Below, piece after piece: positions 27,181 to 29,820 of a stretch of DNA of 64,000 nucleotides. The DNA lies in IMG/VR virus record IMGVR_UViG_3300025450_001231; one strand, written 5' to 3'. Numbering within the stretch: position 1 is the stretch's first letter; each line of letters opens with the position of its first letter. Source of the DNA: a virus. Taxonomy: Duplodnaviria > Caudoviricetes. Both the position numbers and the translations under genes were made by a program. The notes beneath the pieces are model-generated. The model saw nothing but the letters and a program-made list of their open reading frames with translations. It was not told the origin of the DNA and did not search any database.

Positions 27181-27332
27181 TGTGTGTTTTCCTTGTTATA
27201 GTAAAAACTAATGGTTTCTACTAATAGTATTTATACTGATGTTAGTATAACACAACGATTTATGCATAGCTATTGAATATGGCTAAATCTTTGTGCTATA
27301 ATTTGTTTTTATTAACTAAATAGGATATAACC

Positions 27333-28874
27333 GTGAAAAATATGAGAATTACCGACATCATTACAGAAGATTTGGCAGTGGATGCAAGATATGCAACCAG
27401 AGCAGAGATGAATATTCTTTCCCAAAAGCTATCTGCCCAATTACCAGAGTATAGATTTAGTGTTGAAAAGAAATCTACTAGTGAAGTAATTTATATTCGT
27501 ATTTTTAACGCAGACAAGCAAGCTATCGTTGATTACTTTAGAGCACAAGGTCTTGACCAATTGCCGTTAGAGCCTGAACAAGCAGGCATTAGCGCAAAGT
27601 ATCGCAATAATATTTTAAGTTATCAAACCAGTAGTAGACACATTGAGCCTATTGCTCAAAATAAACAACACAAAGTACCACAAACAAAAACCAATGCACA
27701 AACTGTTATCTATACATTGGTTGTAGCCAGTTCTGGTAAAGAAGAAGAAACTGGTGTTGGTGTTAGCATTAAAGAATTTACTCCTACTAGTTTGGGACTA
27801 GCAGGCCGTAAGTATACAAAAGACACATTGATCCAAGCTGCTCAACAAGCAGTAGCTGAAAAAACCAAAACTCGCAAAGATCTACAACAGATTTTGTTGG
27901 GGCTGATTGATGTTGCAGCCAACGGTGGCAAAGGTACACTACCTCCAGCAGTTAATCAAAATTTAAGCGGTAGAGCACGCAATCAACTTAGCGTGGACTT
28001 TGGTGAAATACTTGCTCCTATACTGATTGCAGAAAATGATCAAGAAATTGAATTCCCTGCAGATGGAAACTTCCCATTGATTGACGTGATTGTCAACAAG
28101 GTTAATTATAGTGTCAAGAGCTTAACAGGTTCGGGTACTAGTTTTCGCAGTATCAGTGATTTAATGGATAACTTTGAAAAGACTGTTGAGAAAGATACTA
28201 AACAAGAAAAATTGTTTGCGTTATTCAAAGGCTACCATCCTAAATCAGGCGGCTCCAACAAAGACAAAATTCTTCGTGCAGCCCAATTGATTCAGGTTCC
28301 AGAACTTAAAAAACTGACATCGTCTTTGGGCAAAAAAATTAGCGGTGACATTAATTTTGAAAATCTTAAAGCCATTTTGGCAAAAGTTGTAGACCCAACT
28401 GACAAAAGTACAGATGCATACACAAAGTTTTTGAATTGGGTTTACCCCAGTATGACTGCCGGCGGTTGGGGAAAACCAGTTGGGCTACCACAAGACGGCA
28501 ATCGCTATATGGGAAACAAGACCAAGACCAAAAGCAAAGACGAAAAAGGTTCAGATGAACCAATCGAAAAAACCGCAGGCTATCCCAGTTTCCGTGCTGA
28601 TCCTCTAGAAGCTGCGGCCAACATAGTAACTTATATGTTGGGAGTTGCAACACTTAACGCAGTCACTCGTGGCCCAGATGCCGACGATTATGCTCATATG
28701 ATGACCAACGTGGTCAACCAAAGTTCAGCGTCTTTGGGAAGATTGGACATAACAGACAGCGGCGGTTTGGTTGTTTCTACCAAGCCATTCAGTGAATTGA
28801 AGTTCAAATTCCAATATCACGCACCAAGTCATTTACCAGGAAATAATTTACCTGGCTTTATGATAGTGTATTGA
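27333..28874 (+). CDS. Putative PD-(D/E)xK-like nuclease with propeptide-like N-terminus
   Basis: DFGEILAP...FPADGNFPLIDVIVNKVNYSVKS (E...D...SxK); MRITDIITE at 27342; late motif at 27316; adjacent methyltransferase. Confidence 0.45.
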   Translation: MKNMRITDIITEDLAVDARYATRAEMNILSQKLSAQLPEYRFSVEKKSTSEVIYIRIFNADKQAIVDYFRAQGLDQLPLEPEQAGISAKYRNNILSYQTSSRHIEPIAQNKQHKVPQTKTNAQTVIYTLVVASSGKEEETGVGVSIKEFTPTSLGLAGRKYTKDTLIQAAQQAVAEKTKTRKDLQQILLGLIDVAANGGKGTLPPAVNQNLSGRARNQLSVDFGEILAPILIAENDQEIEFPADGNFPLIDVIVNKVNYSVKSLTGSGTSFRSISDLMDNFEKTVEKDTKQEKLFALFKGYHPKSGGSNKDKILRAAQLIQVPELKKLTSSLGKKISGDINFENLKAILAKVVDPTDKSTDAYTKFLNWVYPSMTAGGWGKPVGLPQDGNRYMGNKTKTKSKDEKGSDEPIEKTAGYPSFRADPLEAAANIVTYMLGVATLNAVTRGPDADDYAHMMTNVVNQSSASLGRLDITDSGGLVVSTKPFSELKFKFQYHAPSHLPGNNLPGFMIVY

Positions 28875-28899
28875 CATTTAATACAATCTCTGCTATAAT
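28871..28899 (+). promoter_or_regulatory. Sigma70-type early promoter of the methyltransferase
   Basis: TTGACA(28871)-17 nt-TATAAT(28894) with extended TG; ATG at predicted +1. Confidence 0.85.
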
Positions 28900-28905
28900 A
28901 CTCAT

Positions 28906-29820
28906 ATGATTACACGCATTAACGGTGATTGCATAGAAGTCGCCTATGAAATTCCAGATCTTAGTATTGACTTACTGTTAACAGATCCTCCCTACAATAT
29001 CAGTGGTGGTGGAGCTGAGCCTGTTTGGATTGACAAAGCCACTGGCCTAAACAAAACTACAATACACAATCAAAACTTCAGCAAAGACTTTGCTGAAAAT
29101 TGGGATGATGTTGAGCACGATGAATTTCTAAGTCAACTTGACTCTTGGAGTGAAATGTGGTTCTCAAAGTTGCGTAAAGGTGCTAGCTTTGCTGTATTCA
29201 TCAGTGACCAATATGTCAGTTACTTGTGGAAAAGTATGGAGCGTGCAGGGTTTGAACCTAAACGTGTTTGGACTTGGAAAAAGCCTGCAGCAGTTCCATT
29301 CAATCGACAGGTAAATCCGGTAAGTGCTTGTGAGTATATCCTGTGGGGAATCAAACCCGGAGGTAAGCGTACATTTAATGCAGATGCAGCTCCTGGCACT
29401 ATTGTTGAGCGTTATGCGGCTGCTGATAAAATCAGTAGCATTGTCTACAAGTTAGCAAAAGAAACAGACGCTGAAGCCAACTTGGAACGAATCTTTGCAC
29501 AAGCATTGGCAGAAGCAAAAACAATGTTACGTGATCGTAAGCGAGATAAAGGTAATGTACAATGTGTAATTCCCAACACTATCACTTATAGTGGCGGATT
29601 GGGAAAGAATAAGATTCATCCAACTGAAAAGCCAGTGGAATTATTAGAGTACTTTATTGAACTGCTAAGTAATGAAAACGACACGGTATTGGATACATTT
29701 GCGGGCAGTGGCAGCACAGGTGTTGCTGCTGAACGTAGAAATAGAAATTGCATCTTAATTGAACGTGACAGAGATATGTTTTTTAAGATGAGTAAAAAGT
29801 TTAATGCGCTGGTAACTTAA
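28906..29820 (+). CDS. DNA N6-adenine/N4-cytosine methyltransferase, beta class
   Basis: LTDPPYN motif IV before HPTEKP and VLDTFAGSGSTG motif I. Confidence 0.95.
   Translation: MITRINGDCIEVAYEIPDLSIDLLLTDPPYNISGGGAEPVWIDKATGLNKTTIHNQNFSKDFAENWDDVEHDEFLSQLDSWSEMWFSKLRKGASFAVFISDQYVSYLWKSMERAGFEPKRVWTWKKPAAVPFNRQVNPVSACEYILWGIKPGGKRTFNADAAPGTIVERYAAADKISSIVYKLAKETDAEANLERIFAQALAEAKTMLRDRKRDKGNVQCVIPNTITYSGGLGKNKIHPTEKPVELLEYFIELLSNENDTVLDTFAGSGSTGVAAERRNRNCILIERDRDMFFKMSKKFNALVT

Follow-up and report, generated by a model that had tools for sequence, protein, structure and literature searches.

The window analysed here is a 64,000-nt stretch of tailed-phage DNA (IMG/VR record IMGVR_UViG_3300025450_001231). 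It is part of a freshwater giant phage with a T4-style recombination set, made up of a gp32-like single-stranded DNA-binding protein, UvsX and UvsY, and it also encodes TerL, tail sheath and tube genes and 23 tRNA genes. A megablast search of the region against annotated phage records returned no near relative. Two adjoining genes, 31 nt apart, are the subject of this work: an open reading frame (ORF) of an unnamed family, called ORF A, and the gene of a DNA methyltransferase (Table 1). An initial annotation had described them as a restriction-modification-like pair that is split in time, with a late and possibly packaged nuclease and an early methyltransferase. The best reading of the sequence data is still that the two genes form such a module with split timing, and to this we give an even chance of being right. 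The initial interpretation was borne out in part: ORF A has a nuclease-like core with an E...D...SxK arrangement, and its linkage to a methyltransferase goes far beyond simple synteny, reaching as far as Agrobacterium phage Atu_ph07.

Table 1. Features of the ORF A-methyltransferase locus and of a second ORF with a similar N-terminus (positions in the window).
Feature	Position	Strand	Description
ORF A	27342..28874	+	510 aa; unnamed phage-only family, predicted restriction-endonuclease-like core
N-terminal peptide MRITDIITE	27342..27368	+	capsid-targeting-like, ends I-x-E
Variable N-terminal alpha/beta domain, residues 14-131	27381..27734	+	swapped for another domain in some homologues
Conserved core, residues 138-510	27753..28871	+	alpha1-beta1-beta2-beta3-alpha2, ~180-residue helical insertion, C-terminal strands
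Putative active site	27996..28145	+	DFGE (E222), PLIDV (D248), SVK (K259), GSGTSF loop
T4-like late motif CTAAATA	27316..27322	+	26 nt before the ORF A ATG
Sigma-70-like promoter with extended -10, upstream of ORF A	27273..27302	+	TTGAAT-18-TGcTATAAT; 10/12 match, TG present
Beta-class DNA methyltransferase	28906..29820	+	304 aa; PF01555, leaderless ATG
Methyltransferase sigma-70 promoter	28871..28899	+	TTGACA-17-TGcTATAAT; 12/12 match with TG; overlaps the ORF A stop codon
ORF 17860	17860..18270	+	136 aa; starts MKITEIISE; end of structural run; candidate second signal carrier

The methyltransferase matches PF01555 with an E value of 2.5e-37 (129 bits against a cut-off of 26.7), and it also matches phrog_67 and the PADLOC model MTase_II. 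The DPPY motif at residues 27-30 (28984-28995) precedes FAGSG at residues 265-269 (29698-29712), which is the motif order of the beta class. The nearest solved structures are those of DpnA/M1.HpyAVI-type enzymes and CcrM, and the closest named relatives are adenine-specific. By this sequence comparison, the protein is probably an N6-adenine methyltransferase.

ORF A was initially annotated as an ORF of 513 aa. Such a form is indeed present and starts from GTG 27333, but translation most likely begins at ATG 27342, which gives 510 aa, because the identical gene-called protein (P0001) has this length and homologues align from the M-R onwards. No family was found for ORF A in Pfam, PHROG, NCBIfam or PADLOC. 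The only library match, LPD29, was below threshold (15 bits against a cut-off of 27), and a search of PDB sequences with the profile of the ORF A family returned nothing even at E 10. More than 266 homologues were found in metagenomes, all of them labelled 'hypothetical', and an exhaustive search yielded 92 representatives when counted at 50% identity. Structure-based relatives, from both viral and atlas libraries, were phage proteins throughout, and a shape search of the ESM atlas returned unnamed viral clusters only. When annotated phage records were searched by tblastn with ORF A, P0143, P0135 and the protein of Phage C48C1, this phage was the sole match. The ORF A profile had no match in the S-PM2 genome, and a structural relative from BFVD, 'T4-like GC 841', was looked for in part of that genome and not found there. 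Phage C48C1 is a T4-like cyanophage (Kyanoviridae) whose 433-aa homologue (locus L084; OQ984149.1 60526-61827) is annotated as hypothetical; it follows an 'exonuclease' gene, and no methyltransferase is adjacent.

An alignment of the family (A1) divides ORF A into four parts: an N-terminal peptide, a linker, a variable alpha/beta domain and a conserved core. The linker comprises 0-60 residues in relatives and is rich in P, Q, T, A and E. Among the homologues P0103-P0110, P0120, P0072, P0087 and P0088, some have an unrelated N-terminal domain and some carry a basic C-terminal tail ending in R-E-R-R. These swapped domains and added tails show that modules have been exchanged around a constant nuclease-like core. 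The full-length AlphaFold2 model reached a predicted local distance difference test (pLDDT) score of 83.7. The whole model gave weak nucleotidyltransferase-like matches, which were confined to the N-terminal domain and had no conserved catalytic residues there.

The core was folded alone using an alignment of 42 diverse homologues (A2). Structure prediction had been proposed at the outset as a check on the nuclease, and the resulting model (pLDDT 91.2, predicted template modelling score 0.85) gave weak but consistent matches to restriction-endonuclease-like proteins. In the model, the helix that starts at E222 leads into three strands and a further helix; an all-helical insertion of ~180 residues comes next, and four strands at the C-terminus rejoin the sheet. 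The FGE...PLIDV...SVK segment that had first drawn attention is present as quoted, with DFGE at 27996-28007, the D248 codon of PLIDV at 28083-28085, SVK at 28110-28118 and GSGTSF at 28128-28145. E222, D248 and K259 are invariant in 42/42 homologues of A2, and their conservation extends to homologues with no more than 28% identity. They were likewise found in each of the 102 ORF A copies derived from the examined loci, whether or not a methyltransferase adjoins, and in the remote homologues, namely those of Phage C48C1 and Atu_ph07 (gp190) and five ORFs of ~420 aa that lie upstream of methyltransferases (L090, L094, L108, L115 and others). The three residues occupy the topological positions of the PD-(D/E)xK motif, with the acidic residue at beta2, the Lys in beta3 and the Glu in alpha1.

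The structural matches are individually weak. Foldseek searches of the PDB with the whole model and with the core model gave no match at E 0.001 or better, and re-ranking added nothing. An exhaustive structural alignment of the core against 48,161 PDB representatives gave weak scores only, led by HhaI (4.4), NhoI (4.0), MspI (3.6) and NlaIV and EcoRV (3.4). Hjc, SwaI and several tRNA-splicing endonucleases were also matched, and I-Ssp6803I was among the nearest folds. Among the top 20 structural matches, 14 have the restriction-endonuclease-like fold, and their alignments begin shortly ahead of the E222 helix, skip the insertion and reach the C-terminus. A feature search with a protein language model (ESM) covering residues 200-510 placed R.HinP1I clusters at the top (21 of 100 matches, 143 shared features) with a score of 0.90, a value that the tool's calibration rates as a lead only. 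The next clusters were those of HaeIII, MspI and SmaI, mostly from giant algal viruses (Nucleocytoviricota). The fold assignment follows from the combination of these structural and language-model matches with invariant residues at the right topological places. It is likely, judging from the models, that the core has a restriction-endonuclease-like fold, and ORF A is probably an active nuclease.

The same data can be read differently, in that ORF A would be no nuclease at all. The E/D/K residues and the GSG loop would then bind a nucleotide or another ligand, and the likeness to nucleases would reflect a common alpha/beta arrangement. This would agree with the empty results from Foldseek, the PDB sequence search, Pfam and PADLOC, with an ESM score that is good for a lead only, and with the glycine-rich KSxxGSG loop (GSGTSF in ORF A) that follows beta3 in most members. 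We regard this explanation as very unlikely. A single fold class accounts for 14 of the 20 best matches among 48,161 chains, and an independent language-model search names the same class. The invariant residues take up the positions expected of PD-(D/E)xK enzymes, and E, D and K outlast the GSG loop, which is found in the closer members and is lost in the remote homologues. In addition, the gene is linked to a methyltransferase.

This linkage was surveyed in 80 loci around ORF A homologues from IMG/VR, two more from metagenome assemblies and 38 loci around methyltransferase homologues; 74 of the ORF A-anchored and 35 of the methyltransferase-anchored loci had enough flanking DNA to be informative. 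A methyltransferase adjoins ORF A in 43/74 loci, where it lies downstream by 28-134 nt in 41 and is divergent and upstream in two (L021 and L060). Conversely, an ORF of the ORF A family adjoins the methyltransferase in 28 of the 35, and nine of these ORFs are divergent, with scores of only 30-75 bits against the family profile. ORF A is on the opposite strand in three methyltransferase-anchored loci (L113, L114 and L117), two of which are the same contigs as L021 and L060. Co-occurrence in relatives, another check proposed initially, thus took the form of adjacency in the majority of loci, and the remainder (31/74 and 7/35) had no adjacent partner. Clustering of all flanking ORFs showed the pair in at least 15 unrelated contexts, and the same flanking context occurs both with and without the methyltransferase. 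Away from ORF A, the methyltransferase stands in a second recurrent context (L086, L087, L093, L099-L101 and L085), flanked by ORF clusters 27/30 on its upstream side and by 23/35 (or 156) on its downstream side. The same methyltransferase may thus have two preferred sites of insertion.

The two genes differ in their rate of change. The pairwise identities of ORF A and the methyltransferase are correlated (Pearson 0.45), and none of 2000 Mantel permutations reaches this value. The identity of the methyltransferases levels off near 65% while that of ORF A drops below 25%. Such a much faster divergence of ORF A is typical of endonuclease-methyltransferase pairs.

The strongest single case is that of the cultured Agrobacterium phage Atu_ph07. 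Its gp190 (AUZ94972.1, 370 aa) matches the ORF A profile with an E value of 1e-13 and has the motifs DYGEIL, FYDL and NVK-SGSGSG. The gene overlaps by 4 nt the upstream gene for gp189, a D12/alpha-class (Dam-type) adenine methyltransferase (PF02086) that is unrelated to, and not an orthologue of, the beta-class enzyme of the window. A non-orthologous partner of this kind fits a functional pair of nuclease and methyltransferase rather than an inherited gene order.

The promoters speak to the timing of the two genes. The perfect sigma-70 promoter and leaderless ATG that had been read before the beta-class methyltransferase are both there. The promoter ends 6 nt before the ATG, and equivalents ending 6-7 nt before the ATG were found in many divergent relatives. 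A strict sigma-70 pattern ending 4-9 nt before the ATG occurs in 13/47 (28%) distinct upstream regions of methyltransferases, as against 2% for ORF A and 2% for other ORFs. This recurrence indicates that a private leaderless promoter for the host polymerase is a conserved property of the methyltransferase. In the window, the word TGCTATAAT, an extended -10 element, is over-represented, with six occurrences (562, 27294, 28891, 32079, 49390 and 49767) against 1.2 expected.

The late motif CTAAATA is also present before ORF A at 27316, as initially annotated. It is not enriched as a word in the window (14 found against 15.5 expected), so that its weight rests on its position before genes and on its conservation in relatives. 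TAAATA was scored within 30 nt upstream of starts. It was found upstream of ORF A in 43 of 54 distinct regions (80%), at 10-13 nt before the start in relatives, compared with 0/47 for methyltransferases and 99/913 (11%) for other ORFs. In the window it also fronts TerL, the head-tail adaptor, a tube-like gene and a virion-protein gene. The T4 late promoter has the consensus TATAAATA, and by analogy with it the conserved TAAATA marks ORF A as a late gene across the family. The concept of the T4 late promoter has been described (PMC9026906). No terminator was found on the plus strand between ORF A and the methyltransferase, and late transcripts therefore probably read on into the methyltransferase gene.

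Taken as a restriction-modification-like module, the pair would work as follows. The host sigma-70 RNA polymerase would transcribe the methyltransferase early from its own promoter as a leaderless mRNA, and the replicating phage DNA would become methylated. ORF A would be made late, and its PD-(D/E)xK-type core, with the site E222...D248...S257-x-K259 and a large helical insertion, would act as a nuclease. The DNA that it cuts would be DNA without the methyl mark of the phage, either that of the host or that of co-infecting phages. The N-terminal domain and the helical insertion both evolve fast, which would suit a role in target or regulatory specificity, or an arms race. As a sub-hypothesis, ORF A might be loaded into the prohead by means of its capsid-targeting-like peptide and injected with the genome.

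Several observations weigh against the restriction-modification-like reading. By sequence, ORF A falls into no nuclease family according to Pfam, the PDB sequence search and PADLOC, and the classic second acidic position is S or A in its family and N in Atu_ph07, which makes the motif a variant form. No methyltransferase adjoins in 31 of the 74 informative ORF A loci (~40%), where the E-D-K site is intact throughout and none of the neighbours of ORF A is a DNA methyltransferase. An intact site in these loci is hard to square with a strict restriction enzyme, unless the methyltransferase is found at another place in the genome. Such is the case in the 143-kb contig G001, where a methyltransferase is encoded about 13 kb or more from ORF A; the other contigs of this group are only 5-25% complete, and a search for the methyltransferase there says little. 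Conversely, seven of the 35 methyltransferase loci have no ORF A beside them. Some pairs combine methyltransferases that are 96% identical with ORF A copies that are only 25-35% identical, from which it follows that the two genes can recombine independently. Finally, the split between late and early expression holds across the family (TAAATA before 80% of ORF A regions and 0% of methyltransferases) but is not clean in the window, since ORF A also carries a sigma-70-like promoter there. Elements of the TGnTATAAT type are likewise found ahead of the late motif in a few relatives (L005, L007, L010 and L013). The split would thus consist of a methyltransferase that is early only and an ORF A that is late and perhaps also early.

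The loci that lack a methyltransferase but keep the ORF A site intact could also be explained if ORF A were a late DNA-processing nuclease, either debranching or resolving DNA before packaging or recycling host DNA, with no methylation-dependent specificity. The adjacent methyltransferase would then represent a frequent but non-functional arrangement. In the lineage of the window, ORF A stands after the gp32-UvsX-UvsY genes, Hjc Holliday-junction resolvases and tRNA-splicing endonucleases are among the fold matches, and late expression fits a role at the packaging stage. Chance synteny, however, is a poor fit to an adjacency that recurs in at least 15 unrelated contexts and in either orientation, and that in Atu_ph07 involves a methyltransferase which is not orthologous. 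The divergence of ORF A is also well above what a core enzyme of DNA metabolism would be expected to show, and the window already has a TnsA-like PD-(D/E)xK ORF and an HNH ORF near the packaging genes. A purely DNA-processing role is therefore held to be quite unlikely.

A comparison with known systems supplies partial precedents for the restriction-modification-like reading. In chlorovirus restriction-modification systems, virion-packaged endonucleases are reported to degrade host DNA (e.g. in PBCV-1; PMC7253447, citing Agarkova et al. 2006). Like these viruses, the phage of the window would be a large freshwater double-stranded DNA virus that methylates its own DNA and directs a type II-like nuclease against unmethylated host DNA, and by this analogy the chlorovirus systems are the closest functional precedent. 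The activity and packaging of the chlorovirus endonucleases were shown by experiment and their hosts are algae, whereas ORF A belongs to a tailed phage and is known from sequence and models. ORF A further differs from the chlorovirus enzymes in its extra N-terminal domain and its helical insertion of ~180 residues, and it has no sequence-level family. The nearest type IIP enzymes are MspI, HinP1I and HhaI, at the level of fold and features only. ORF A fails their profiles, as hmmscan with PF09208 and PF11463 (MspI/HinP1I) gave no match at E up to 1, whether for ORF A or for the 42 sequences of A2, and it is twice as long as these enzymes.

The initial annotation had pointed to the Cfr10I/NgoMIV group, which shares with ORF A the D...S-x-K variant of PD-(D/E)xK. 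The Cfr10I motif S188-V-K190 is the same SVK tripeptide as that of ORF A. In this group, a helix located downstream of the motif supplies the compensating Glu, whereas the invariant Glu of ORF A lies upstream in alpha1. Enzymes of the group were not among the 50 best structural matches of ORF A and gave no Pfam match, although the group may still apply.

Orphan phage methyltransferases, such as the Dam of T4 or P1 and members of phrog_67, offer a simpler parallel. The enzyme of the window is an ordinary PF01555/phrog_67 protein and could simply shield the DNA from host restriction. Unlike the orphans, it has a preferred neighbour in many different contexts, a single nuclease-like gene that evolves fast, and it has a private leaderless sigma-70 promoter. 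With respect to all these systems, the protein family is new, as is its architecture of a signal-like peptide, a swappable N-terminal domain and a split nuclease core. The family-wide late promoter is new as well, and so, for tailed phages, is the tight, non-obligatory pairing with a methyltransferase that is early and leaderless.

The question of packaging arises from the N-terminal peptide of ORF A, which resembles the capsid-targeting peptide of T4. The latter has the sequence MKTYQEFIAE (PMC8442874), its first ten residues suffice for encapsidation (PMC9026906), and the gp21 protease cleaves after Glu in T4 (PMC9026906; PMC5694885). An [LIF]xE motif was found within 16 residues of the N-terminus in 138/143 gene-called homologues of ORF A, compared with 18% of other ORFs. 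The codon of Arg2 differs among relatives (AGA, CGA or CGT), which points to selection on the peptide and not merely on the 5' end of the RNA. MRITDIITE had been said to resemble other starts in the window, and there is in fact one: a start of the form M[KR]-h-x-[ED]-h, where h is a hydrophobic residue, occurs in the 64 kb in ORF A and ORF 17860 only. ORF 17860 has no family in Pfam or PHROG. It overlaps the stop of an 816-aa ORF (15413-17863), the last large ORF of the structural run, to which it is translationally coupled. The pattern M[KR]xxE[ILF][ILF]xE is shared by its homologues in four related contigs, and in one genome the ORF A and ORF 17860 families both read -ELFE-. On these sequence features, ORF 17860 is possibly an internal head protein with a targeting peptide. 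Two tandem paralogues of ORF 17860 were found in contig G009. PF03420, the T4 gp21-type (S77) prohead protease, is above cut-off in two related contigs (G007 and G008) and not in three other contigs, which are partial.

These features would be accommodated by a different role, in which ORF A serves chiefly as an internal or ejection protein targeted to the capsid. It would be made late, brought into the prohead by its N-terminal peptide, cut after Glu9 by a protease of the gp21 type and then injected. In the cell it would guard the incoming genome or attack host defences, and the nuclease fold may serve for DNA binding only. The methyltransferase would adjoin it as fellow anti-restriction cargo, with no shared recognition site. 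In favour of such a role are the peptide, which is conserved at the amino-acid level, T4-like and common to ORF 17860, the PF03420 proteins in two related contigs and the family-wide late motif. The fast divergence of ORF A and the variable linker behind the peptide also recall the internal proteins of T4 (IPI-III and Alt), which share with ORF A an (I/L)-x-E N-terminal peptide, a late promoter and a diverse, fast-evolving body. The T4 proteins are highly diverse behind their conserved targeting sequence (PMC3012670).

Against this role, and against packaging in general, stands the virion proteome of Atu_ph07. Electrospray ionization tandem mass spectrometry (ESI-MS/MS) detected more than 100 virion-associated proteins, and gp188, gp196 and even single-peptide proteins are listed; gp189, gp190 and gp191 are absent (PMC6102473 Table S5). 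The gp190 protein starts with MKTFLNE. Moreover, the ORF A gene lies outside the structural module, and the strict N-terminal motif is found on just 2-3 ORFs per 64-180 kb. The invariant E/D/K site, for its part, points to catalysis over mere binding. A role of ORF A mainly as an internal or ejection protein is considered unlikely. Packaging of ORF A in the virion is possible but less likely than not.

Packaging can also be combined with the restriction-modification-like reading. ORF A would then be packaged, a gp21-type protease would trim it after Glu9, and it would be injected together with a genome that is already methylated. The injected nuclease would destroy unmethylated DNA of the host or of rival phages before any phage gene is expressed, and the early methyltransferase would keep each new generation of phage DNA immune. 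That both parts hold jointly seems rather unlikely. We know of no natural T4 internal protein of the restriction-nuclease type. EcoRI and staphylococcal nuclease have been packaged artificially by means of the T4 capsid-targeting signal (PMC9026906).

The analysis provides a large unannotated family of freshwater and marine giant phages with a concrete hypothesis, namely that of a restriction-type nuclease tied to an early methyltransferase. If it is true, tailed phages would carry offensive restriction-modification modules with temporal control built in through two types of promoter, and new restriction specificities, with N-terminal domains that can be swapped, would be available from the ORF A family. 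If packaging is also true, ORF A would be the first case of a natural T4-type capsid-targeting signal that injects a DNA-cutting enzyme, and it would form a link to the virion-borne restriction enzymes of chloroviruses. To our knowledge, DNA-cutting enzymes on such a signal have so far been engineered only (EcoRI and staphylococcal nuclease fused to the capsid-targeting signal, CTS-EcoRI and CTS-staphylococcal nuclease).

Some other features of the window deserve mention. A 142-aa ORF on the plus strand (13817-14245), within the tail and structural run, has a TnsA-like endonuclease N-terminal domain (PF08722, E 1e-21) and is a second PD-(D/E)xK-type nuclease in the window. An HNH endonuclease ORF on the minus strand (18524-19072) lies between the structural run and TerL and matches PF14279 and PF01844 with E values of about 1e-16; it may represent either a homing endonuclease or an HNH protein associated with the terminase. 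The motif [A/C/G]TAAATA is found 10-47 nt before many structural or late-looking genes, including the ORFs starting at 5358, 11554, 14262, 14793, 19143 and 20726, and likewise before those at 35408, 38497, 40315, 41346, 56717 and 63686. Together with the positions of TGCTATAAT, these sites make up a usable map of the early and late promoters of the phage.

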